Part shown: one piece after another, positions 36,028 through 59,264 of the stretch
Layout: each line of letters opens with the position of its first letter
Position numbering within the stretch: position 1 is the first letter of the stretch
DNA from: Halobacteriovoraceae bacterium
Lineage (GTDB): Bacteria > Bdellovibrionota > Bacteriovoracia > Bacteriovoracales > Bacteriovoracaceae
Reading direction: 5' to 3'
Length of the DNA: 64,000 nt
Assembly: GCA_963719505.1 (NCBI GenBank)
Contig: CAVRCF010000001.1
Coordinates: forward strand, 320,001-384,000
Position numbers and translations under genes: made by a program
The notes under the pieces: model-generated
Seen by the model: only the letters and a program-made list of their open reading frames with translations
Told to the model about the DNA's origin: nothing
Databases searched by the model: none

Positions 36028-37493
36028 TAATATGAAAACAATGCGCCAAGTTTTAGCATTGTATCCCTGTAAGTTACTTCAGAGACGTCTCCACTGAAAT
36101 CCGCACTATTATTTGTTATCTCTACGCCACCAATTAAAGTGACTTCTGGTGCATATTTAAAACTAGCTCCCGCTTCAAAATGAAGAGAGTTTGAGTCTTT
36201 ACTAGATCCATATATATTGTCATCATCTTTGAATTCAGAAAATGGAATAATTTCTCCCTTGGCAAAAATTCTTATCCCTCTTTGAAGTGGCATGTTTCCA
36301 CCAACACCCACTAGAAAGCCAGATAAGCTGTTGGAGCCAAATCCGTCTACATTACTTCTTTCAACATTGTAAGAGTAATTGACATAACCACCATAAAGAT
36401 TAACTTGAGGTCCATAAAAGAAACCCATGGGTAAATACTTATAACCACCAACGACTTTAAGAACACCATTTGATACGGATACCGTTTTTAAATCTGGGCT
36501 GCCTGAATCCTTTGAAAGGTTACCCAACGTTCGGGAAAATTCACCAGCAACAAAGTAATTTCTGGTTATCCAAGCCTCACCCTCTACACTTAAACCGTAG
36601 GTTAAGCCTGACATTTTTATTGAGCCAGCTGAAGGAGAAGTACCAATAGAACTTGATCCCATCTTCAGACCTATCGTAAGGGTTCCTAGTTTTCCAAATG
36701 TTTTCTCTTTTGCATCATCGAAATTTTTATTTCCAAGGCTATTAAGAGCAGTAACCTCTTCTAATGTTACCCAGTCGCCTGGTTTAATTTTAGTATTTGT
36801 ATTGTAAACTTTGATAATTCCGAGAGCTTGTTTAGTACTCTCATTAAAAATCTTTCCTTCTGCAATATCATCAAAGTCCCATTCGACAACAGTTTTTAAA
36901 AGCCTATGTCTGGTCTTATTTTTATATCTTTTTACTGAAAATTTTTGTCCAATTGATTTTTTCTTATTTGGTGAAACGGTGAACGTGACCTGGTCTCCTA
37001 ATACACCGATGACTTGACCATCATAGGGAATACTTTGTTCGTAAGTTTCTAGCCATGTTACCAGCTGATTAGAAACACTCTCAACATTTGCATTCTCAAT
37101 AATTGTTTTTTCATTAAAGTATAAATCAATTCCATTTTCACCCAAGACATCCATCTCGAGTTCAACTTTATTGACCACATACTTAATATTAATTCTAATG
37201 AGTGATCCTACCTGAAGCTTATTTATAACTGTTCGAAGGACCTGTGGATCCTCGAGGTGCTCGGCAAGTCTTTCACGGTATTTACTAAAAACTGTTAACA
37301 ATGAAGCCGTCGATTCGTAATCGCACCAGTTTCCTTCCTTTAAATAGTCTTCTAGCCGCTCATAAACTCTGTAACCCAACGCATGGCCAGCACTATCAGT
37401 GACAGGAAGCATAGAGCATTTTCGCATACTAAATCGTTCTGCATATAGATTTCCAGAGAGAAGAAGAAAAACACTTATAATAAATATTTTCAT
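36027..37493 (-). CDS. Outer-membrane protein (N-terminal periplasmic domains, C-terminal beta-barrel)
   Basis: Signal ending LYA; C-terminal ~220 aa of amphipathic strands ending LFSY. Confidence 0.6.
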   Translation of the reverse strand: MKIFIISVFLLLSGNLYAERFSMRKCSMLPVTDSAGHALGYRVYERLEDYLKEGNWCDYESTASLLTVFSKYRERLAEHLEDPQVLRTVINKLQVGSLIRINIKYVVNKVELEMDVLGENGIDLYFNEKTIIENANVESVSNQLVTWLETYEQSIPYDGQVIGVLGDQVTFTVSPNKKKSIGQKFSVKRYKNKTRHRLLKTVVEWDFDDIAEGKIFNESTKQALGIIKVYNTNTKIKPGDWVTLEEVTALNSLGNKNFDDAKEKTFGKLGTLTIGLKMGSSSIGTSPSAGSIKMSGLTYGLSVEGEAWITRNYFVAGEFSRTLGNLSKDSGSPDLKTVSVSNGVLKVVGGYKYLPMGFFYGPQVNLYGGYVNYSYNVERSNVDGFGSNSLSGFLVGVGGNMPLQRGIRIFAKGEIIPFSEFKDDDNIYGSSKDSNSLHFEAGASFKYAPEVTLIGGVEITNNSADFSGDVSEVTYRDTMLKLGALFSY

Positions 37494-42757: not shown

Positions 42758-43276
42758 GTGACTATGCAAATTAAAAATTTCGAACTCAAAGCCAAATTGA
42801 AAGATCCAGATAAAGTAAAAGATATTCTTCTTGAACTTAATGCTGATTATAAAGGATGTGATGAGCAGTTAGATTCTTATTTTAATGTTCCCAGTGGAAG
42901 ATTAAAACTTAGACAGGGAAATATTGAAAATTCTCTCATTTTTTACAAAAGAGAGGATACAAATAAAGCTAAGGAGTCAGATATCTCCTTTTCTAAAATT
43001 CCTTTTGAATCTGATAATATACTTGATGTTCTCACTCATGCTTTAGGGGTTAAGAAGGTTATAATAAAGAAGAGGGATATATATTTTATCTACCATGTAA
43101 AGTTTCATATCGATTATCTAGAAGGACTGGGCTCTTTTGTTGAAGTAGAAGTTATTGACGATAAAAATGAGTACTCAATTGAACAGATGAAGGAGCTTTG
43201 TCTCTTTTATAAAAACAAACTCGAAATTAGTGATTCTGATTTAATTGATAAGTCTTATTCTGATATGGTTCTATAG
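42758..43276 (+). CDS. cyaB: CYTH-domain protein (class IV adenylate cyclase family)
   Basis: ELKAK, QLDSYF, GRLKLR, KKRDIY, HID.LEGLGSFVEVE, SYSDM motifs. Confidence 0.85.
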   Translation: MTMQIKNFELKAKLKDPDKVKDILLELNADYKGCDEQLDSYFNVPSGRLKLRQGNIENSLIFYKREDTNKAKESDISFSKIPFESDNILDVLTHALGVKKVIIKKRDIYFIYHVKFHIDYLEGLGSFVEVEVIDDKNEYSIEQMKELCLFYKNKLEISDSDLIDKSYSDMVL

Positions 43277-43344
43277 GACCAGGTTTTTTGGTGGTTCTAT
43301 GGGGGCACTGTCAAAAATGCAAAAAAAATGCCCCGATAGGGGCA
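43266..43344. repeat. Cluster of three 16-bp palindromes (motif family B)
   Basis: TGGTTCTATAGGACCA 43266-43281, TGGTTCTATGGGGGCA 43292-43307, TGCCCCGATAGGGGCA 43329-43344. Confidence 0.8.
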
Positions 43345-43347
43345 TTT
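43321..43347 (-). terminator. Intrinsic terminator of atp operon
   Basis: Stem AAATGCCCC-gata-GGGGCATTT with an A-tract that gives a U-tract on the minus strand, just past the atpC stop. Confidence 0.8.
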
Positions 43348-43358
43348 AATTTATCTTT

Positions 43359-43769
43359 TTAATTTTGATTACCAAGCTTGAGCCTCATTTTGGCCCTCTC
43401 AAGTTTTCTTCTAAACTTAATAATGTCTACATCTGTAAGAGAAGAGTCACCCTTTAGTCTAGATTCAGCTTTTGCTTTTGCAGCTTTTGCTCTTGCAATA
43501 TCAATTTGATCAGCTGTTTCTGAAGTTGTTGAAAGAACATTTACTTCTTTTTCAATCACTTTTAGTAAGCCAGCTGTCACTGAAAATTTTCTCTCACCAC
43601 TACCAACTTTAGCCGTTAGGATACCAGTTGCTAATTCAGAGATTAAATTTATATGTCCAGGTAGAACATTAATTTCACCATTAACAGTTGGTATTGTAAA
43701 AGAGTCACAATCGAGACCCTTTAAGATAACACCATTTGGAGTGAAAATATTTAATTTAAAGTTACTCAT
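43359..43769 (-). CDS. atpC: ATP synthase F1 epsilon subunit
   Basis: IFTPNG, GEINVLPGH, IDIARA motifs; operon position. Confidence 0.93.
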   Translation of the reverse strand: MSNFKLNIFTPNGVILKGLDCDSFTIPTVNGEINVLPGHINLISELATGILTAKVGSGERKFSVTAGLLKVIEKEVNVLSTTSETADQIDIARAKAAKAKAESRLKGDSSLTDVDIIKFRRKLERAKMRLKLGNQN

Positions 43770-43772
43770 TTT

Positions 43773-45177
<1,405 letters not shown>

Positions 45178-45189
45178 TATTATGTCTCC

Positions 45190-46060
45190 CTAAGAGTTAA
45201 GCGACTCAGCACCAGACACAATTTCTGTTAATTCTGTCGTAATCGCTGCTTGTCTTAATTTGTTTATTGTTAATGTTAAATCTTTAATCATATCTCTTAC
45301 AGTTATTTGTCGCATTATCCATCGCCGTCATTCTGGCTCCGTGCTCAGCTGCAATTGCATCAAGAATACATGTGTAAATTGTCGTGTTTAATACTTCTGG
45401 GATTAAGTTATCCAAAATCTTTGCAGCACTTGGCTCGTAGATAAAATCTATTGGAATTGTTTCAAGATTTACCACTTCACCTGTTGTTACAGTCATTGGA
45501 AGAAGCTTGTTTTACACTCGAGTTAAATTCAATTGCTGAAACAAAAGCATTATAAGCCGAGGTAGACATTAGCAACTTCGCCAGAGACAAATTTTTCAGC
45601 AAGTTCGCTTGCAATGGCCTTAACTTCATCAAAAGTTGGGTCATTTTTTGCGAACTCGTATTTTTTCGTCGATGGTATCCCTTCTCTTTTAAGAAGGCTT
45701 TCACTTTCTTTCCAATAAAGTAAAACTCAAATTTTTCTTGAGATTCCTTTTTAAACTTTAGGACTCTTTTATAGAGTTGTGAGTTATAACCCCCACATAA
45801 TCCCTTATTAGAAGAGACGACGAGTACAATTGATTTTTTAGCTTCTGTATTTTCCTTAAGGTACTCATGAGAATAGTTTTCTACAAGTGAGGAAGCCATA
45901 CGAACAGTCTTTCTAATTCAGAAGAATAAGGCTTAAAGTTCGTTATCTTTCCTTGAGCTTTTGACAGCTTTGCTGCAGAAACCAGTTTCATGGCACTAGT
46001 GATCTTGAAAGTATTTTTCGTACTTTTAATTCTAATTTTAAGATCTTTAATATTAGCCAT
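45190..46060 (-). CDS. atpG: ATP synthase F1 gamma subunit (several frame breaks)
   Basis: MANIKDLKIRIKS...ITSAMKLV, SSNKGLCGGYN, EHGARMTAMDNA, RQAAITTELTEIVSGAE in shifting frames. Confidence 0.92.
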
Positions 46061-46080
46061 TAGTTCCTCTTAAGTTTCTA

Positions 46081-47590
46081 TTATTTATTAGCGTCAACAA
46101 AAGCTTTAATAACTTCGTTTAACTTCGCTTCAGATTCTGGCGAGATTTTTTTCTCGTTAGCAATAGCATTACGAAGGTCAGAGTGTTTCGCTGTAACGTG
46201 TTCGATTAAGTTTTTCTCTATAGAAACAATTTTAGATTTATGAACTGAATCGAAGAAACCTTTTGTTGCAGCATAGATACTAATAACTTGATCTTCAACT
46301 TCAAAAGGTGAGTATTGTGGTTGCTTAAGAAGTTCTACCAATCTCTCCCCTCTTTCAAGTTGCTTTCTTGTTGCTTCATCAAGATCTGATGCAAACTGAG
46401 AGAAAGCTTGAAGTTCTCTATATTGAGCAAGGTCTAGTCTAAGAGTACCAGCAACACCTTTCATTGCTTTAATTTGTGCAGAACCACCAACTCTTGATAC
46501 TGAGATACCAACGTTAACAGCTGGTCTAACACCAGCGTTAAATAGATCACCCTCAAGAAAGATCTGACCATCTGTAATCGAAATAACGTTCGTTGGAATA
46601 TAAGCCGAAACGTCACCTTCTTGAGTTTCAATAATTGGAAGAGCTGTTAATGAACCAGCACCAACATCATCACTCATCTTTGCTGCACGCTCAAGAAGTC
46701 TTGAGTGAACATAGAATACATCCCCTGGGAATGCTTCTCGTCCTGGTGGACGTCTAAGAAGAAGTGATAATTGTCTATATGCTTGAGCTTGTTTAGTTAA
46801 GTCATCATAAACGATAAGTGCATGTTGTCCGTTATCTCTATAGTACTCACCCATTGTACAACCAGTAGTAAGGTGCAATGTATTGAAGAGGAGCTGACTG
46901 AGATGCTGAAGCATTTACGATAATTGTATACTCAAGGGCACCAGCTTCTTTAAGTTTTTGATAAACTTGTCTAACTGTTGATTGCTTTTGTCCGATCGCC
47001 ACGTAAATACATTTAACGTCTTTACCTTTTTGATTGATAATAGTATCGATAGCAACGGCTGTTTTTCCAGTTTTTCTATCACCAATAATTAGCTCTCGTT
47101 GTCCTCTTCCAATTGGAATCATAGAGTCGATTGCTTTAATACCTGTTTGCATTGGCTCATGAACTGGTTTTCTTTTAATAATACCAGGTGCTTTGATTTC
47201 AATATTTCTATATTCAGTAGCATTGATTTCACCTTTACCATCAATTGGCTCACCTATTGAGTTTACAACTCTTCCAAGAAGACCGTCACCTACTGGAACC
47301 TGAACAATTTTTTCAGTTCTTTTAACAGTAGATCCTTCTTTAATGTGTGAAGATTCACCTAGAACAGCAACACCAACGTTATTTGATTCAAGGTTTAAAA
47401 CCATCCCCTTAACGCCACCGTCGAACTCAACAAGTTCTCCAGCTAAAACGTTTTTTAAACCAAAAACTCTTGCTACACCATCACCGATAGTTAGAACAGT
47501 TCCGATTTCGTTTACATCTAATTTAGTTTCGAAATTCGCAATTCTTTCTTTGATAATTCCCGTAATTTCTTCAGGTCTCATTGTACTCAT
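46081..47590 (-). CDS. atpA: ATP synthase F1 alpha subunit (frame break near 46860)
   Basis: [30 protein letters not shown] motifs in two ORFs. Confidence 0.95.
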
Positions 47591-47634
47591 CCAACTAATC
47601 CTTATGTTATTGTTAAGTTATTTTTCGTCTTTTT

Positions 47635-49237: not shown

Positions 49238-49573
49238 TTACTTTTTATCTTTCATTTTCGTTACACCGTGAAAGATAACGCCCTCTTCTACAATAAGACT
49301 CGGAGAGGTAACAGTACCCTCAAACCTTGCAGGTCTTCTTATCTCCACTCGCGATGTCGCTTTTATGTTTCCTTTGACGGCACCTGAGATGAGAATGATA
49401 TTGGCGTTGATGTCTGCGTTGATGACAGCCCCTTCTGATATAATAAGAGTGTCATTGGAGAAGATACTTCCTGTGACGATTCCTGAGATTCTAACAATCC
49501 CATTAAATGAGAGGTTGCCTTCAAAACGACAACCCTCTTCTATAATCGCACATATTTCATTTTTGCTTGCCAC
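49238..49573 (-). CDS. Bactofilin (polymer-forming cytoskeletal protein, DUF583)
   Basis: Beta-helix repeats FEGNL..VRISG.V.GSI...LII.EGA.I.ADI...I.G.V.GNI...VEEGVIFHG. Confidence 0.9.
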   Translation of the reverse strand: MASKNEICAIIEEGCRFEGNLSFNGIVRISGIVTGSIFSNDTLIISEGAVINADINANIILISGAVKGNIKATSRVEIRRPARFEGTVTSPSLIVEEGVIFHGVTKMKDKK

Positions 49574-49604: not shown

Positions 49605-50483
49605 TTATTTAGATATTAAAAATTTGTAAATATCATTAAACTCGGCTTCATTTGTATACTTTAGAGTAATTGTACCAGAACCATTATTTTTTGTCTTTAA
49701 TTCAAAATGGTATCCAGTTTTATTTTCGAGTTTTTGTTTAATACTATCAAGTTTCTCGTCAAAAAATTTATTACTCGTTTTAGGCTTAGATGCTCTTTTT
49801 GTTTTAATAGCTTTTTCTAAGTCTCTAACTGACATCTTCTCATCAATAGCAAGTCTCGCAAATCTCTTTGTTGCCTCGTCATCTTTTAGTGATGCTAAAA
49901 CCTTTGCATGACCAAATGAGATGTCTTCTTTCTGAAGATGCCCAATGACTTCTCGAGGAAGCTTAAGCACTCTGAGAAAGTTAGCAATTGTCGATCTCTC
50001 TTTACCAATTTGTTTTGCTACTTCTTCTTGAGTTAAACCAAATTCATTCATTAAAGAATAGTAAGATAAAGCCTCTTCAACGCAGTTTAAATCTGCTCGC
50101 TGAACGTTCTCTATAATGGCCATGGCCATATGCTCTTTCTTACTGACTTTTTTGGTCACAACAGGAACCATCTCAAGACCAGCAAGCCTTGAAGCCCTAA
50201 GTCTTCTCTCTCCAGAAATTAAAAGAAATGTTCCGTCACTTTGTTCAGTGACGATAAGGGGCTGGATAATACCATTTTCTTTTATTGAAGCTGATAATTC
50301 AGTAATCTCTTTATCTTTAAATATTTTTCTGGGCTGATCTTTATTTGCTTTAACTTTTTCTATAGGCACTAATAATGACCCATTACCTTGGCTTTTTGGC
50401 TGTCCCATATTCGGTGAAGCATTCCCACCCAATAATGCGCTCATTCCTTTACCCAGTGCTAACTTATTTTTCGTTGTTGCCAT
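49605..50483 (-). CDS. parB: Chromosome partitioning protein ParB
   Basis: LGKGMSALL, QPRKIF, GIIQP, GERRLRA, IENVQR, HTH RSTIAN motifs. Confidence 0.96.
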   Translation of the reverse strand: MATTKNKLALGKGMSALLGGNASPNMGQPKSQGNGSLLVPIEKVKANKDQPRKIFKDKEITELSASIKENGIIQPLIVTEQSDGTFLLISGERRLRASRLAGLEMVPVVTKKVSKKEHMAMAIIENVQRADLNCVEEALSYYSLMNEFGLTQEEVAKQIGKERSTIANFLRVLKLPREVIGHLQKEDISFGHAKVLASLKDDEATKRFARLAIDEKMSVRDLEKAIKTKRASKPKTSNKFFDEKLDSIKQKLENKTGYHFELKTKNNGSGTITLKYTNEAEFNDIYKFLISK

Positions 50484-50497
50484 CTCAATTTCCTCTC

Positions 50498-51361
50498 TTA
50501 TATTTGGTAGTCATCAAAACTTGGAATATTTAATTCATCTTTGTTTATGATTTTTTCGATAATTGGTTCATCTTTCTTTTTTAAGTCTGACTTCGCTTTA
50601 TCTTTATAAATGATTTCTTTTGCTACATTGAGGTATGCCTCTGATCCCTTGGATGTAATGTCATAAATAATTATGGGCTGACCATGACTAGAACATTCAG
50701 ATAGTTTTACGTTTCTTGGGATAATTGTTTTAAAAGTATCATTTGGAAAAGTATCTCTGATTTCCTGAGCAACTAATTTTGATAGATTATTTCTTCCATC
50801 AAACATCGTTAGCAAAATACCTTCTAATTCAATAATTGGATTTAGGTTTTGCTTTATGAGTTTTACGGTATTGATAATTTGAGCTAGTCCTTCCATCGCA
50901 AAATATTCAGTTTGCAGTGGTACAATGTAACTATCCGCTGCACTTAAACCGTTGACCGTTAATAAGGATAAAGACGGTGGACAATCGATAATAATATACT
51001 CGTATAAAGCCTCTAGAGGCTCAAGGGCAGACTTTAACTTAGACTCGCGAGCGAATGCTTGCATAAGTTCTACCTCTGCACCAATGAGGTTATTATCAGA
51101 CGGGCAGATATGAAGCTGAGGAAGTTCTGTTTCATAGATACAGCTTTCAATATTTTCACCACCTATCATCGCATGATAGATATTAGCCGTTGAAAAGTTT
51201 TCTTTACTTAACCCCAGTGCAACACTTGCATTACCCTGAGGATCTAGGTCAACTACTAGTGTCTTCTTCTCAGCTACAGCTAAGCATGCTGCTAAATTTA
51301 TGGCAGTGGTCGTTTTACCTACCCCACCCTTTTGATTTGCAATTGCTATTATTTTAGCCAT
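50498..51361 (-). CDS. parA: Chromosome partitioning ATPase ParA
   Basis: [33 protein letters not shown] motifs. Confidence 0.96.
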
Positions 51362-51402: not shown

Positions 51403-52053
51403 TTAAAGAAGAGTGGAAAGTTTGACAAGCTCGTTTGTAATTTTTGTTGTTCCACATGGAACATTTTTTGATCTAAATCCAATTAAAAGTCTTTTTTCTG
51501 TTCCCTCAACAGACAATTCCTTCTCTTCTATTATGTCCCAATTCTTTTTTGCTAGTTCTATCTGATCTCTTTCAAGCTCGTAGAAACCAGGCCCCTTATA
51601 AAAAAACACTGTTATTTCGCATAAACTATTTATTTTTTCCAAAAAGTCATGAACCTTACCTACAGCTTTGAGGGTACAGGTCGTTGGCATATCAAAGATA
51701 ATATTCTCAATCCTAGAGTGTACTAGTTTGAAATTATCTAGCCCGAGCTTTTTTCCAATTTCGGTTACAACAATAACTTTTTTCTTTCTAGTCTCGACAC
51801 CGATAAATTTTTTGTCTGATAACCTGTGGGCCATTGGAAGGATGGGAAAACCACCACCAAACCCAATATCTATCATTACACCAGTGCTATCTAACTCTTT
51901 TACAAAAACATCAGATTGATCAAGTGGTGCAAGTGAATCATCTATCTGTTTTAAGACAAAGTCATCATAATCCACAATTCTAGTGAGGTTTATGCCTGCA
52001 TATTCGGTTGTTAATAAATCGAAGTATTTTCTTGAAAACTCTTGTTGATCCAT
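51403..52053 (-). CDS. rsmG: 16S rRNA m7G527 methyltransferase
   Basis: INLT, DIGFGGGFP, KKV motifs; lies between mnmG and parA. Confidence 0.88.
   Translation of the reverse strand: MDQQEFSRKYFDLLTTEYAGINLTRIVDYDDFVLKQIDDSLAPLDQSDVFVKELDSTGVMIDIGFGGGFPILPMAHRLSDKKFIGVETRKKKVIVVTEIGKKLGLDNFKLVHSRIENIIFDMPTTCTLKAVGKVHDFLEKINSLCEITVFFYKGPGFYELERDQIELAKKNWDIIEEKELSVEGTEKRLLIGFRSKNVPCGTTKITNELVKLSTLL
51448..51463. promoter_or_regulatory. parS site
   Basis: TGTTCCACATGGAACA, 1 mismatch to TGTTCCACGTGGAACA; inside rsmG. Confidence 0.8.
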
Positions 52054-53882
52054 TACATTCCTGCCACAACAGCTAAAGTAGCTGGTCGAAGACCATCAAT
52101 AAGTTTCAATTGTCCAAAGGTTTCAGGCTTAATCTTCTCAATTCTTTGTTTACACTCAAAACTGATATTTTCTGATGAAACAAGCCTAGACCAAGATATC
52201 TTTTTAGCATTTAAGCCCATTATTTTTTGATTATGAGTAACAGCTTTAGCTATGTAGCCACTGTATTTTGTATCAATTGCAACGTTTCTAAGGACCGTAC
52301 CGTCAATAGATATCCCACTGTAGTCACAATATAACTTTAAGGTCGAAATTGGGTTAAAATTTGTATTTTTTAATAAATCAGATAGAGAAATCTTCTCTGA
52401 TACGACTAATCCAATTTCTTTAAGAAAAGGAGATTGAGGATTTATACTATTTCGCTCTACAGATTCGCTCAATGAAAAATATGTTGATAAATAGGATTCA
52501 TTGTACTTATCAACATCAGTATTTAATCCAAGTTTCTCTCTATACTTCGCTATTCTAGTAACAGTGTTATCCTCTCTCACTGATAGTCTATTTTCATTCC
52601 TAGCGGTAAAAAGTCGATAAGGTTCATCTCTAGTGTTAGATATGAGATCCTCAATCATAACTCCTATATAGCTATCAGTACGGCTCAAAACAAACTTTTC
52701 TCTGCCCAAAACACTCAAGGCTGCATTAACTCCAGCAATTAACCCCTGCCCAGCTGCCTCTTCATAACCAGAAGTACCATTGACTTGTCCAGCAAAGTAT
52801 ATGCCTGGCATTTTTTCTAATTCTAAACCATATGTTAATTGTGTTGTATCAATAACATCGTACTCAACAGCGTAACCATATTGTTCCACGTGGCACTTTT
52901 CGAGACCCTCAATCGTTTGTAAAAATTCTTCTTGAATCTCTTTGGGTAAACTTGTTGATATACCACTTGGATAGACGGTGTTTAGGTTTAAGCCTTCTGG
53001 CTCTATAAACACATGATGAATATTTTTATCAGGATATCTATAAGCCTTATCCTCAACAGAAGGACAATATCTCGCACCCACCCCTTGAATCTGGCCATTA
53101 AACATTGGAGATTTTTCTTTATTATTTCTAATAACTTCTAGTGTTTTCGTATTAGTTCGAGTTAAAAAACACGATACTTGCTTAAGATTTCTGTAAGAAT
53201 CTTTGTGCAAGCAGTGAAATGAAGCAACTGTCTCATCACTTTTTTGCTCTTCCATCAATGAGAAATTAACACTATCTTTGTTGAGTCGTGCTGGTGTACC
53301 AGTCTTAAAACGAGCAGAGACTGTATCTATATCTTTAAAAAATTCAGCCAGAGACACAGAAGGGTCAGCACCCGAACGACCACCACTTGTTTGTTCACTT
53401 CCAGTATGCATTTTACCGTTCAAGAAAGTACCAACTGTAATTACAATCTTTTTAGTGTTCCACGTGGAACTTTCTCCGTGAATGATAAAACCATCTTCGG
53501 TAGATTCTATCTTCTTAGCTTTATTTCTAATTATATCAATGTTTTCAATTTTAGAGATGAGTTCCTCAGCAAATACAGAATACATTTCTTTATCGATTTG
53601 AATTCTTGTGGATTGAACTGCAAAGCCTTTTGATTCATTTAATGTTCTGAATTGAATTCCGGCCATGTCAGCTAATTTTCCGGTAATTCCGCCTAGAGCA
53701 TCAATCTCTCTTACAACTTGACCCTTGCCTACTCCACCAATAGATGGGTTACATGGCGCAGACGCTAGGCCAACACCTGGAAGTGTAAGAATAGCTACTT
53801 TTAGACCAAATTGAGAGGATAGAAATGCGGCTTCTATACCTGCATGTCCACCACCAATGATAATGATATCGTAATTTTTCAT
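52053..53882 (-). CDS. mnmG: tRNA uridine-5-carboxymethylaminomethyl modification enzyme MnmG/GidA
   Basis: GGGHAG, CNPSIGG, RFKTGTPAR, RYCPSVE, GQVNGTSGYEEAA motifs. Confidence 0.96.
   Translation of the reverse strand: MKNYDIIIIGGGHAGIEAAFLSSQFGLKVAILTLPGVGLASAPCNPSIGGVGKGQVVREIDALGGITGKLADMAGIQFRTLNESKGFAVQSTRIQIDKEMYSVFAEELISKIENIDIIRNKAKKIESTEDGFIIHGESSTWNTKKIVITVGTFLNGKMHTGSEQTSGGRSGADPSVSLAEFFKDIDTVSARFKTGTPARLNKDSVNFSLMEEQKSDETVASFHCLHKDSYRNLKQVSCFLTRTNTKTLEVIRNNKEKSPMFNGQIQGVGARYCPSVEDKAYRYPDKNIHHVFIEPEGLNLNTVYPSGISTSLPKEIQEEFLQTIEGLEKCHVEQYGYAVEYDVIDTTQLTYGLELEKMPGIYFAGQVNGTSGYEEAAGQGLIAGVNAALSVLGREKFVLSRTDSYIGVMIEDLISNTRDEPYRLFTARNENRLSVREDNTVTRIAKYREKLGLNTDVDKYNESYLSTYFSLSESVERNSINPQSPFLKEIGLVVSEKISLSDLLKNTNFNPISTLKLYCDYSGISIDGTVLRNVAIDTKYSGYIAKAVTHNQKIMGLNAKKISWSRLVSSENISFECKQRIEKIKPETFGQLKLIDGLRPATLAVVAGM
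52882..52897. promoter_or_regulatory. Degenerate parS site
   Basis: TGTTCCACGTGGCACT, 2 mismatches; inside mnmG. Confidence 0.6.
53456..53471. promoter_or_regulatory. parS site
   Basis: TGTTCCACGTGGAACT; inside mnmG. Confidence 0.85.
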
Positions 53883-53893
53883 TTAAGACCTAA

Positions 53894-53909
53894 AGTTCCA
53901 CGTGGAACA
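53894..53909. promoter_or_regulatory. parS site
   Basis: AGTTCCACGTGGAACA in the mnmE-mnmG intergenic gap. Confidence 0.85.
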
Positions 53910-53910
53910 A

Positions 53911-55404
53911 TTATTTTCCTATACAAAAATTTTGGAAAATATTTTCTAAAATATCGTCTGGCGAAATTATACCAACGAGTTCGGAAATACAATGGCCTAC
54001 TATATTAAATTCAGAGGAGATGATCGAAATATCTGTAGATTTATTCAAGGTTTTTTCATACTCTGAGAGTAAATTATAAACATTATTTATTTGATCTACA
54101 TGCCTTTCTAGTAATATCGGCTCTTTATTGGAAATTTCTGTATATTTTAAATAAATTCTATCGAGAATAAATAAATTAAGTTTACTATTGGTATTTTTCA
54201 AGTTTGCCCCGATAGGACCACAGGTGATAACTGGTTCTATAGGACCAACATCACCCTTAGCAATACTAGTTTTTGGCTCTATAGGACCATTTAAGAAAAT
54301 TGGTTCTATAGGACCATTTAAGAAAATTGGTTCTATAGGACCAAGAATCTTCAATTCTTTAAAAATTTTAGATGAGTTTTCAATGAACCCTTCTTGATCT
54401 GCATTGGTGAACAAAATAAGATCAAAAAAGTTGTCTTTAAAAACCTCTGTTAGGTCGGAGGAACTCTCGAATGGATTAATGACCAATATTTTGAAAAATG
54501 CATTCTTGGCAATTTTCCAAGTCTTTTCAATTCCAGCTGTTTCAATCACGTCCGACGTCTCTCTCACACCGGCTGTATCGATAAGTTTAAATCGAGAGCT
54601 TTTAAAAAATATTTCTTCACTGATATAGTCTCTAGTTGTGCCAGCGATATTTGAAACTATGGCACGATGATTTTTTAAAAGAGAATTAAAGAGTGAACTC
54701 TTTCCTGCATTAGGCTCACCTATCAAAACAATCTCTGGCTCTATTAAATTACCCTTACCTGATATGATTCTATCTTTTAAAACTGAGATACTATCTTTCA
54801 ATTTATCTAGGGTGACTTGAATTTGCCTATTTCCCTCCTCTTCACCTACATCATCCATAAAATCAATAGACAACTCAATAGCTGAACGGTGCATCTTATA
54901 AGAAGAAAGCAACTCCAAATATGCCTCTTGCAAAGACCCATTTAAAAGAGACATTCCCTGCTTAAGACTGAGGGGATTATTCGCGTTTAGAAAAAGATCG
55001 AGCCCTTCGACTTGGCTTAGTGATAATTTTTTATTTCTATAGGCCCTATATGAGAACTCACCTGGGTAGGCTCGTCTAATATTAAGTTTTTTACAAAGAA
55101 GACTAATAATATTTTGAACATTTATAGCATTCCCATGAACTGAGAGCTCAAGAATATTTTCACCATTAAAGGATTTGGGCCCCTTAAAAAATGTAAGGAC
55201 AATTTCATCGATAACATCTTTACCATCCAAAATTTTACAATAATGGGCAAAGCGATTTTTAATTAAACTTGGACTGATTGAAAATACATCTTCAAATAAC
55301 TCTAGAGAAGAAAAACCTGAAATTCTAATAATTGCAATTGCTGTATTGATGTCGCCACCGGAGCTACATGCAATAATACAATCATTAGAATCGAAAAAAT
55401 CCAT
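53911..55404 (-). CDS. mnmE: tRNA modification GTPase MnmE with internal GPIEP repeat insertion
   Basis: IAIIRISG, GPKSFNGE, PGEFS.RA, GEPNAGKSS, GTTRD, DTAG, C-terminal FCIGK. Confidence 0.95.
   Translation of the reverse strand: MDFFDSNDCIIACSSGGDINTAIAIIRISGFSSLELFEDVFSISPSLIKNRFAHYCKILDGKDVIDEIVLTFFKGPKSFNGENILELSVHGNAINVQNIISLLCKKLNIRRAYPGEFSYRAYRNKKLSLSQVEGLDLFLNANNPLSLKQGMSLLNGSLQEAYLELLSSYKMHRSAIELSIDFMDDVGEEEGNRQIQVTLDKLKDSISVLKDRIISGKGNLIEPEIVLIGEPNAGKSSLFNSLLKNHRAIVSNIAGTTRDYISEEIFFKSSRFKLIDTAGVRETSDVIETAGIEKTWKIAKNAFFKILVINPFESSSDLTEVFKDNFFDLILFTNADQEGFIENSSKIFKELKILGPIEPIFLNGPIEPIFLNGPIEPKTSIAKGDVGPIEPVITCGPIGANLKNTNSKLNLFILDRIYLKYTEISNKEPILLERHVDQINNVYNLLSEYEKTLNKSTDISIISSEFNIVGHCISELVGIISPDDILENIFQNFCIGK
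54205..54343. repeat. Array of five 16-bp palindromes (motif family B) within mnmE, including a 27-bp tandem duplication
   Basis: Copies start at 54205, 54232, 54274, 54301, 54328 (spacing 27/42/27/27); consensus TGGTTCTATAGGACCA. Confidence 0.9.
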
Positions 55405-57449: not shown

Positions 57450-57641
57450 AACTAATCCTAAAACAAAATATGTTTATATTAAAATCTTTTTTGGAGCCTA
57501 TAATTACAAGAAGAATGAGAATGGGTCAACAAATTAAATACTAATAATAGTATGGTAAAAAATTGTAAATTTAATATTCAATGTTGAAAAGTATACGGCC
57601 ACGTGTTAAAAAACGTCTCAATCAAATTATACAGGGGTCAT

Positions 57642-59264
57642 ATGAGCGATAGTTTTCCGTTTGACAAGTTCATCAAGTCTAATAAAAACAATACCTTAGA
57701 GAATTCAAAACAAGACATCTCAAAATTTTTTAAAACTGAGGCAACTGCTGCAACTATTGAAAAAAATGAACAAAAACAAATAGTTAACCACGATTCAGAT
57801 GAGTTATACACAATAACTAGCGAAATACTCTCTATTGTTAAAAACAATATACCATCTGAAAAATTTAGCACCTATTTTTCAAATACATTCGTCCTGACAA
57901 GCTTCGATGAAATGGACTTCCACTTTAGTGTTACGACAAAGTTTATTAAAATGATGATTGAAAATCATTACAAAGAATATATCAACCAAGCCGTTATTGA
58001 ACTCATGGGTAAGCCCTTTAATATCAATATCAACCTGCTAGACAATATAGAAACACAATATTCACAACCATCAACAACGAGTAAAATACTTGATGCTACC
58101 ATTAATGAAACTCAAAAATTTGATCTTCAAAAAAGTATATCAGTAAAAGATATGAGTTTTAAAATTGATCCATCATTCACGGCTTCAAGAGAGGACATCG
58201 CTGGCGTTGTCAGAAGCAGTGAATTAAAACATCTCAATGGAAACGTGTTTGGTAGAATTGATAAAACAAAGACTTTTGATAATTTTGTTGTCGGTCCATC
58301 AAATAATATGGCCCACGCATTTTCTTTAGCTGTTTCAAAAGATCCAGGTTTGGCTTACCCGCAGTTATATCTTTATGGAAATTCTGGTCTTGGTAAAACT
58401 CACCTTTTGCATGCCATTTGCAATTATATTGATGAGCAGAATCCAGAAAAGAGAATATGCTTTACGTCAGCGGGTGACTTTACCAAAGAGATGGTTATGT
58501 CCATCCAAAGCAAAACGATCGGTGACTTTCAGCGCAAATATACAGACCTTGTCGATGTTCTAATCATCGATGATATTCACGAACTTAAAGATCGAGCTAG
58601 AACACAAGCAGAATTTTTTCATATCTTTAATGAGCTCCAAAATAAGAAAAAACAACTTATTTTTACCTCTGATAAAGCTCCAAAGGAGATATCTGGCTTG
58701 GAAGACAGAATCAGAACTAGACTCTCTAGCGCGCTTCTCACTGACATTCAGCAGCCAGATTTGGAAACCAGAATCGCTATTTTAAAGAATAAAGCAAACG
58801 AGAGAGACATCTATATCGGTGATGATGTCATCAATCTCATCGCAAGTTGTGTGCGAAATAATGTTCGAGAGCTTGAGGGTAAACTAATAAAATTAGGTGC
58901 TTACTCAGACCTTATGAATGTCGACATCGATTTAGAAATTGCAAAAGAGCAGCTCAACCTCTCTGAAGACAATCAAGACAAACTTCTAACTGTAGAGAGT
59001 ATCGCTAAAACTGTAGCATCCTATTATAAACTGCCCCTTGGCGATATAAGAGGGAAAAATAGAAAAGCTGAACTGGTACTGGCCCGCCATATATCGATGT
59101 ATCTTATCCATAAACTACTAAAAAAGACGTTGGAAGAAATCGGAGAATATTTTAACAAGCGGGATCATAGTACGGTTATTCATGCCATCGATAAAATGAA
59201 AAAACGAATCTCTGACGAAGCTTCTTTTTCACAACTCATCTATGAAATAGAATCGAACGTATAA
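57642..59264 (+). CDS. dnaA: Chromosomal replication initiator DnaA
   Basis: TFDNFVVG, GNSGLGKTHLL, LIIDDI, NVRELEG, RDHSTVIHA motifs; start set to ATG 57642 after AGGGG. Confidence 0.97.
   Translation: MSDSFPFDKFIKSNKNNTLENSKQDISKFFKTEATAATIEKNEQKQIVNHDSDELYTITSEILSIVKNNIPSEKFSTYFSNTFVLTSFDEMDFHFSVTTKFIKMMIENHYKEYINQAVIELMGKPFNININLLDNIETQYSQPSTTSKILDATINETQKFDLQKSISVKDMSFKIDPSFTASREDIAGVVRSSELKHLNGNVFGRIDKTKTFDNFVVGPSNNMAHAFSLAVSKDPGLAYPQLYLYGNSGLGKTHLLHAICNYIDEQNPEKRICFTSAGDFTKEMVMSIQSKTIGDFQRKYTDLVDVLIIDDIHELKDRARTQAEFFHIFNELQNKKKQLIFTSDKAPKEISGLEDRIRTRLSSALLTDIQQPDLETRIAILKNKANERDIYIGDDVINLIASCVRNNVRELEGKLIKLGAYSDLMNVDIDLEIAKEQLNLSEDNQDKLLTVESIAKTVASYYKLPLGDIRGKNRKAELVLARHISMYLIHKLLKKTLEEIGEYFNKRDHSTVIHAIDKMKKRISDEASFSQLIYEIESNV

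Follow-up and report, generated by a model that had tools for sequence, protein, structure and literature searches.

The window analysed in this study is a 64,000-nucleotide stretch from a Halobacteriovoraceae bacterium (GTDB family Bacteriovoracaceae; assembly GCA_963719505.1, contig CAVRCF010000001.1, positions 320,001 to 384,000), and it was found to contain repeated copies of a 16-bp palindromic motif (consensus TGSYYCKATRGGRSCA) near the dnaA gene, five of which are written in frame into mnmE. The motif is very probably a selected DNA element, and its arrays probably serve as binding sites for a protein, as judged from sequence comparison. The full explanation preferred here, which includes a ParB-type centromere role for the sites with a family-specific ParB paralogue (ParB2) as their reader, is assigned a probability of roughly 0.45; a centromere or anchoring function, as put forward in a preliminary description of the window, is a plausible one.

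The consensus was matched at exactly nine positions of the window (43266, 43292, 43329, 44853, 54205, 54232, 54274, 54301 and 54328), the same nine that the preliminary description had reported, and no copy was found upstream of 43266, in agreement with its observation that the first 43 kb are free of the motif. When up to one mismatch was allowed and both strands were counted, 17 matches were obtained in the window compared to a mean of 0.03 (maximum 1) in 100 shuffled sequences. With the start of dnaA (57603) used as the origin marker, the nine copies lie at distances of 3.3 to 14.3 kb; they are origin-proximal as had been claimed, although the range of 5-16 kb given earlier was not reproduced with this marker. 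The copies and the gene which hosts most of them are as follows.

54205..54343: array of five 16-bp sites, in frame inside mnmE, encoding GPIGA once and GPIEP four times in a predicted disordered loop

53911..55404, minus strand: mnmE, encoding a tRNA-modification GTPase of 497 aa (Pfam TrmE_N, MMR_HSR1, MnmE_helical), host of the array

43266..43281: site TGGTTCTATAGGACCA, identical to mnmE copies, overlapping the stop codon of a CYTH-domain gene and followed by a T-run

43292..43307: variant site TGGTTCTATGGGGGCA, in the gap between the CYTH-domain gene and atpC

43326..43347: TGCCCCGATAGGGGCA copy (the consensus match at 43329), with a 9-bp stem and T-runs on both strands, a doubtful member of the motif family

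44853..44868: site in atpD, in the true reading frame (AGPIGAK), which arose by substitutions in one genus (g1) only

The spacing of the five mnmE copies (27/42/27/27 bp) was confirmed, and the three right-hand copies were recovered by Tandem Repeats Finder as a 27-bp unit (2.6 copies, 97% matches, 54273-54343). The assembly which holds the window (G000; 3.69 Mb in 5 contigs, 37% G+C, 83.5% complete) contains 12 consensus positions, all on contig C1, and nine of these fall within 11 kb (C1:363266-374343). A weight matrix made from the sites gave 13 matches in G000 at a score of at least 18, nine of them in C1:355-385 kb. All six of the sites inspected outside the cluster (three consensus sites and three weaker matrix matches) are inside ordinary open reading frames (ORFs) and several distant sites encode G-[SP]-I-G-[PA] peptides; these distant sites look like chance by-products of common codons.

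Selection on the DNA rather than on the encoded peptide, which the preliminary description had suspected, is strongly supported by codon usage. In order to avoid circularity, MnmE proteins were searched with a loose peptide pattern and the codons were read afterwards (82 repeats in 23 proteins). The first glycine of the repeat was encoded by GGT in 77 of 78 cases, while the glycine at the fourth position was encoded by GGA (31), GGG (22) or GGT (1). Proline at the second position was CCT in 60 repeats, CCC in three, CCG in two and never CCA, and at the fifth position it was CCA in 52, CCG in six and CCT in two. The isoleucine codon was ATA in 54 cases and ATC in six, with no instance of ATT. 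In the remainder of the same genes GGT makes up 36% of glycine codons, CCA and CCT account for 38% and 36% of proline codons, and ATT for 57% of isoleucine codons. The codon preceding the repeat specifies many different residues, yet its third base is T in 80 of 82 repeats. Mirrored synonymous codons of this kind are demanded by a palindrome and not by a peptide, and the test therefore points to selection on the DNA and argues strongly against a peptide reading. Retention of GPIEP through synonymous changes that break the palindrome was not seen; the codons stay mirrored and the peptide varies.

The peptides themselves are diverse. Copies in the main frame encode 16 different pentapeptides, of which GPIEP and GSIGP come from a single DNA site read in its two orientations. 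A second frame (WSYRT-like) is used at eight sites, and a third, open only to variants without TAG, at five. The 31 intergenic sites among those collected from relatives (see below) have the same variant spectrum as the rest, and their spacings are not multiples of three. In atpD, other genera encode AGPV(N/K)(S/A) with varied codons at this point, while in genus g1 the peptide is AGPIGA and its codons are exactly those of the motif; this copy sits in a native, conserved peptide region in which three changed residues made the site. Residues 354-406 of MnmE, which include the array segment, lie between two helices and have a predicted local confidence (pLDDT) below 50, compared to a mean of 79.5 for the whole model, and are predicted to form a disordered loop. 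Alignment with E. coli MnmE (9hip) covered residues 6-308 and 436-497, and the array segment falls in the unaligned stretch.

The distribution of the motif was then assessed in other genomes. The consensus was present in all 24 of the sampled genomes of the same family (22 genera) and in one of 16 from other families, while a reversed control pattern gave a single match in the 41 genomes of this sample. When more genomes of the order were sampled, the motif was present in 146 of the 149 that belong to the family (934 match rows in this sample, compared to 10 control matches), and in a sample of the phylum it was present in 35 of 35 family genomes. Among 27 other families of the phylum sample, 14 of 165 genomes gave one to three matches each, which is approximately the rate of the reversed control; outside the family the motif is at noise level. 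The only non-family genome with matches in the first sample (G027) has two sites (G027:C9, 3058 and 4590) in a duplicated intergenic segment of about 60 bp, which contains a T-run and precedes two ORFs for putative secreted or lipoprotein-like products, and these sites are probably terminators unrelated to the motif family. The motif bases are kept across more than 50 genera, although the MnmE proteins are only approximately 33-62% identical and the spacers between sites are not conserved.

The origin-side region was fetched for all 24 relatives (each locus of at most 20 kb), and the gene order of the window was kept in every one of them as far as the contigs reach. The motif occurs throughout in the syntenic block dnaA-yidC-mnmE-mnmG-rsmG-parA-parB-bactofilin-atp, where it flanks a cluster of parS-like sites. 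Strict-consensus positions in the 25 genomes, counted by hand, numbered 153, and 134 of these are in the fetched origin-side loci. The origin enrichment and the presence in relatives that the preliminary description had asked about were thus both observed, and the pattern is not one of REP-like scatter.

A set of 166 sites was compiled from the window and the 24 relatives' loci at a matrix score of at least 16. They were located in mnmE (101), between recognised genes (31), in parB (7), in the stop-to-stop frame of the bactofilin gene (6), in mnmG (5), in a 714-aa ORF beyond atpC (orf714; 4), in yidC, parA and atpD (3 each), in dnaA (2) and in rsmG (1), so that 135 are in ORFs. In one relative (G016) the parB-bactofilin spacer contains five sites, all upstream of the bactofilin start codon, and most or all of the sites assigned to the bactofilin frame are probably upstream of the true start in the same way. 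The recurrent places are a fixed point of MnmE, the gap between parB and the bactofilin gene (occupied in several relatives) and the gap after atpC, with the parS-like sites between them in mnmG and rsmG; several sites are directly upstream of the bactofilin gene or orf714. The MnmE proteins of G008, G017 and G019 have no array, and sites are found elsewhere in the block in these genomes. G019 carries seven in-frame copies in its canonical ParB (G019:C163, 8842-9140), in the linker from an N-terminal Lys/Gly-rich peptide to the ParB_N domain, where they read as GSIGAK/GSIGPK repeats.

Genomes contain from one to approximately 13 sites, either single or in arrays with 23-38 bp from centre to centre; the array units are of 24, 27 or 30 bp, and up to 11 sites occur in one ORF (mnmE of G022). 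Most of the relatives are metagenome-assembled genomes whose contigs are often broken inside arrays, and the contigs of several of them end there (G023:C6, G023:C24 and G151:C9). Short-read assemblies are thus interrupted by the repeats, and the copy numbers counted in genomes of this kind should be read as minimum values. At least eight genomes of another genus (g20; e.g. G022:C1:15019 and G052:C1:246292) share an extra variant, TGGTCCGATAGGAGCA, at a place remote from the origin.

A scan of GTDB (one genome per species, two adjacent sites required) gave at least 118 stretches, of which 80 loci were listed. All 80 listed loci carry genes of the dnaA-to-orf714 block, and 433 of their 491 sites are in mnmE. 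The listed loci are labelled Bacteriovorax, Bacteriovoracaceae or Halobacteriovorax, or bear broader or looser names (Bdellovibrionales, Bdellovibrio sp., Oligoflexia, Deltaproteobacteria, one Epsilonproteobacteria and two 'bacterium'). Records of Halobacteriovorax marinus and Halobacteriovorax sp. CON-3 were among the matches listed; their sites fall in mnmE and the parB region.

The symmetry of the motif was examined in the 166 sites. The ideal form is TGGTCCTATAGGACCA, in which arms of TGGTCC, TGGTTC or TGCCCC flank a TATA-like centre. Perfect palindromes numbered 25, a further 74 sites have one asymmetric position, and 53 are TGCCCC/TGGTYC hybrids in which two of the six pairs are broken; the earlier statement that the variants keep their inverted-repeat symmetry therefore holds only in part. 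Two TGCCCC arms were observed together at one site, compared to five expected under independence. In coding copies with one TGGTTC arm, read in the mRNA sense, the C.A mismatch (27) was commoner than the G.U wobble (12). The arms thus vary independently and without compensation, which argues against a hairpin; it appears that the two half-sites are conserved independently, as would be the case for a dimeric DNA-binding protein, and that their pairing is not.

The neighbourhood of the motif in the window consists of dnaA on the plus strand followed, on the minus strand, by yidC, mnmE, mnmG, rsmG, parA, parB, the bactofilin gene and the atp operon as far as atpC (43359-43769), beyond which are the convergent CYTH-domain gene and then orf714, which has no family match. 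The features of the partition region are as follows.

57603..59264, plus strand: dnaA (Pfam Bac_DnaA, Bac_DnaA_C)

53894..53909: parS-like palindrome AGTTCCACGTGGAACA, in the mnmG-mnmE gap, with the first mnmE array site 296 bp away

53456..53471: parS-like palindrome TGTTCCACGTGGAACT, in mnmG

52882..52897 (C1:372882): weaker parS-like site TGTTCCACGTGGCACT, in mnmG

51448..51463: parS-like palindrome TGTTCCACATGGAACA, in rsmG

50498-51361, minus strand: parA, canonical (Pfam AAA_31/CbiA)

49605-50483, minus strand: parB, canonical (Pfam ParB_N and HTH_ParB)

49238..49573, minus strand: bactofilin gene, directly downstream of parB

Palindromes of the parS-like type TGTTCCACGTGGAACA were found at four places when the whole of G000 was searched, all of them in the window (51448, 52882, 53456 and 53894), and the motif is distinct from parS, as had been proposed. 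Its half-site TGGTCCTA equals the parS-like half-site TGTTCCAC at five of eight positions, as first counted in the preliminary description, with the three differences including the whole centre; when the arms are compared with those of the parS-like sites of the window, five of six bases are equal. Of the 24 relatives, 20 show the arrangement of parB followed by a bactofilin gene in their fetched loci. It recalls Myxococcus, where a bactofilin scaffold is reported to position ParB-parS (PMC5703909).

The ATP synthase genes are broken in the window (43773-47617), with a change of frame in atpA at approximately 46867, another in atpG at approximately 45297 and two nearby, compensating frameshifts in atpD (44650-44815). 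As these are essential genes and the assembly, in five contigs, is only 83.5% complete, the frameshifts look like assembly indel errors rather than marks of pseudogenes.

A candidate reader for the motif was sought among ParB homologues, of which every one of the 24 family genomes searched has exactly two. The second is encoded outside the window.

G000:C1:30706-31590: ParB2, 295 aa, approximately 340 kb from the arrays

G000:C1:30706-32396: parA2-parB2 operon of overlapping genes, with a ParA2 of 259 aa

In eight relatives which have both loci on one contig, parAB2 is approximately 260-430 kb from the par locus, and the products of 13 relatives' parAB2 loci are 70-85% (ParA2) and 56-77% (ParB2) identical to those of G000. 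ParB2 orthologues were present in all 24 family genomes of the relatives sample and, in the phylum sample, in 35 of 35 family genomes and none of the 165 others. The best 120 matches listed from a large protein collection were all close orthologues (68-100% identity), the named ones being ParB family or hypothetical proteins from Bacteriovoracaceae or Halobacteriovoraceae, and no characterised relative was among them. The nearest solved relatives of ParB2 are Noc and Spo0J/ParB. It keeps the GERRxRA and ENxxRE motifs of CTP binding, while its helix-turn-helix (ASERKI..ALGISKSEVHR.L.IAKLP) differs from that of the canonical ParB (ParB1) at most positions and is without the G-H-A-K stretch of ParB1. 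In Caulobacter ParB, residues 162-207 hold the parS-contacting and specificity residues (PMC7383237); that this numbering carries over to ParB2 is an inference. The motif, in turn, has the length and the arm layout of the local parS-like sites. ParB2 thus has no known site and the parS-like motif no known reader, and both are family-specific, which makes the pairing suggestive; that ParB2 reads the motif is proposed tentatively, as somewhat less than an even chance.

Three other proteins were considered as readers. The preliminary description had named the ORF at 37490 as an HTH protein, but it gave no Pfam match and only an NCBIfam match far below the cut-off, and the second ParA/ParB operon is the better candidate. 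Another protein of G000, of 322 aa and with ParB_N as its sole domain (C3:39709-40674), is the third ParB_N protein; it fits poorly as a reader, since clear orthologues were present in only 14 of the 24 family genomes, together with one weak match. orf714 has no Pfam or NCBIfam family above the cut-off and falls in a 'hypothetical protein' cluster of the protein atlas (0.85).

Several observations weigh against assigning the motif to ParB2 and a centromere role. Partition sites are usually found beside their operon, but no motif at a matrix score of at least 10 was found within approximately 3 kb of parAB2 in any of 14 loci. A perfect palindrome shared beside parAB2 was not found in these 14 loci either, the only recurring one nearby (3 of 14) being a coding-driven sequence inside parB2 itself, and this absence of a site of its own counts in favour of ParB2. 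The motif and ParB2 are linked by one phylogenetic coincidence, of a kind to be expected for many other genes, and no independent phylogenetic contrast between the two was found among the family genomes searched. The three family genomes without a strict motif match all have ParB2; two of these also gave no match for ParB1, and their origin region may be unassembled, while in the remaining one two degenerate sites are present at a distance of 3 kb from parB. Perfect palindromes make up only 25 of the 166 sites, and the TGCCCC arm, which is two adjacent bases removed from TGGTCC, is conserved (it occurs in 9 of the 31 intergenic sites too) and is not obviously explained by a single symmetric reader. 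In addition, the frameshifts in atpA, atpG and atpD indicate that single bases of G000 are not fully reliable.

The alternative that survives best, although it is judged less likely, is that these are true protein-binding sites with a reader other than ParB2, such as ParB1 in a second binding mode or an unrelated family-specific regulator or nucleoid protein. The sites could then have a regulatory or structural role and, for example, mark a boundary or roadblock to the spreading of ParB1, control the promoters of the bactofilin gene and orf714, or control replication. They are on either side of the parS cluster, within the stretch over which spreading of ParB1 would be expected, and several are directly upstream of the bactofilin gene or orf714; the five of six arm bases in common with parS and the lack of a motif adjoining parAB2 also favour this alternative. 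Arrays of up to 11 sites in one ORF (mnmE of G022) are, however, unlike operators, the helix-turn-helix of ParB1 is ordinary and ParB1 has parS-like sites of its own, and no other candidate emerged from the third ParB_N protein, orf714 and the ORF at 37490.

It is improbable that the motif is neutral or selfish, as a minisatellite prone to slippage or an element of the REP/MITE type would be, spreading locally with no function for the cell. In favour of this are the 27-bp tandem unit, the variation in copy number between close relatives (3 to 6 in mnmE within genus g1) and the interruption of assemblies at the arrays, in which contigs of G023 and G151 end. Against it are the conservation of 16 bases across more than 50 genera while the spacers are not conserved, a location fixed to one syntenic block with few copies per genome, and single sites which arose by point changes in atpD. 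A Y1/RAYT transposase (PF01797) gave no match in G000 (83.5% complete), whereas control genomes were matched, and no arrays were found in viral contigs.

More improbable still is that the palindromes act through hairpins of single-stranded RNA or DNA, whether as terminators, attenuators, signals for processing or stabilisation, or cruciforms. The segments fold better than shuffled sequences (z of -3.5 to -6.2), but this is trivial for palindromes and the folding energy is uninformative. The terminator pattern of a G+C-rich stem with a T-run fits the 43326-43347 copy on both strands and, more weakly, 43266-43281, both at the atpC/CYTH end. The former is the sole site among the 166 with two TGCCCC arms, and its simplest reading is as an intrinsic terminator which serves atpC and the CYTH-domain gene in both directions, so that the preliminary description's grouping of all nine copies into one family is doubtful for it. 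The CYTH-domain gene (42758-43276) has its stop codon (TAG) at the centre of the 43266-43281 copy, and this copy may also serve as its terminator. For the family in general the arm changes are not compensatory, as seen in the 53 hybrids, the shortage of double-TGCCCC sites and the excess of C.A mismatches over G.U wobbles; sites occur in both orientations, and no T-run follows any of the five mnmE copies (by eye). Least probable of all, at odds of only a few in a hundred, is that the repeat was selected as a flexible Gly/Pro linker of MnmE with the DNA similarity as a by-product: it is in frame at the same MnmE point in most genera and in a predicted disordered loop, but the mirrored synonymous codons, the base fixed before the motif whatever the residue, the 16 pentapeptides, the same DNA in non-coding spacers, two other frames and six other recognised genes, and the arrayless MnmE of G008, G017 and G019 with sites elsewhere in the block all argue against it.

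Under the explanation preferred here, with ParB2 as reader, the motif is a cis-acting double-stranded DNA element held by purifying selection throughout the Bacteriovoracaceae, its sites flanking the ordinary parS cluster in a stretch of approximately 20 kb that adjoins dnaA. Spacer DNA is almost absent from this operon block, and the arrays would therefore have lodged where extra sequence is tolerated, that is in short intergenic gaps and, in frame, in disordered linkers (mainly the MnmE loop, and the ParB linker in one genome), and at these linkers the requirement on the DNA would dictate a Gly/Pro/Ser/Ala-rich peptide. A sequence-specific DNA-binding protein, most likely ParB2, the family-specific paralogue encoded with ParA2 approximately 340 kb away, would read each site as a symmetric dimer, and the cluster would act as a second centromere-like or origin-organising locus. 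Extended further, and at greater risk of being wrong, this would mean that two partition machines share one origin, ParA1/ParB1 on parS and ParA2/ParB2 on the second palindrome, with arrays of the latter interleaved with parS and the sequence of a protein loop dictated by a centromere.

The motif was compared with known systems. Like parS, it is a 16-bp palindrome present in few copies clustered by the origin and the par operon, often in coding sequence, and a ParB-family CTPase with no assigned site (ParB2) is present in every family genome searched. It differs from canonical parS, with which it has five of eight half-site bases in common, and G000 has four separate parS-like sites; the motif occurs in tight in-frame arrays in disordered loops, with none beside parAB2, and is a candidate binding site. 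Noc-binding sites (NBS) are distributed across most of the chromosome and Noc is not known to have a ParA partner, whereas the motif is confined to approximately 20 kb and ParB2 is encoded with an overlapping parA2. Noc nevertheless offers an earlier example of a ParB paralogue whose 16-bp palindrome has diverged: NBS is a derivative of parS changed at a few positions, with specificity set by a few residues of the helix-turn-helix region (PMC7383237). A nucleoid-occlusion role of the Noc type, raised in the preliminary description, is disfavoured by the confinement of the sites, which are not chromosome-wide.

The sopC centromere of the F plasmid, read by the ParB-family protein SopB, consists of tandem units which each contain a 16-bp inverted repeat, and its array architecture resembles the 24/27/30-bp units seen here, although sopC is plasmid-borne and non-coding, lies beside its partition operon and has longer units. 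The ram sites of Bacillus RacA are palindromic and origin-enriched and tether the origin region; the motif is likewise palindromic and on the origin side, but within approximately 20 kb, while ram sites extend over hundreds of kb and their reader is not a ParB. REP/BIME elements and the Rickettsia palindromic element (RPE), which can be in frame, are short imperfect palindromes dispersed in tens to hundreds of copies, whereas the motif has approximately 12 copies at one fixed locus, mostly in ORFs, and no RAYT gene was found in G000. In multi-replicon Burkholderiales, one cell is reported to contain several ParB/parS pairs, one per replicon, whose 16-bp sites are related but not the same (PMC5450999), while here both site families are side by side at one origin. 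The motif is best described as a parS/NBS-like site family, the unusual property of which is its in-frame arrays in disordered loops of housekeeping proteins. Full-text literature searches, which did not reach subscription journals and supplementary files, returned no description of it, and the available part of a Bacteriovorax chromatin study mentions parS only in general terms (PMC11789641).

If the arrays are a second centromere-like locus, they would be a clear natural case of a cis-acting DNA site shaping the amino acid sequence of an essential enzyme, with mirrored codon choice as a textbook-quality signature. On the same condition, this would be the first case known to us in which a single chromosomal origin has two different families of ParB-type sites next to each other, and the orphan ParA2/ParB2 pair found family-wide would gain a target. 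As arrays are present in cultured members, the question is directly testable. A dual centromere could serve the predator cycle, in which a multi-chromosome filament forms within the prey and one chromosome is anchored in each attack-phase cell, and the motif would then provide a handle on the sorting and anchoring of origins in predators which grow as polyploid filaments.

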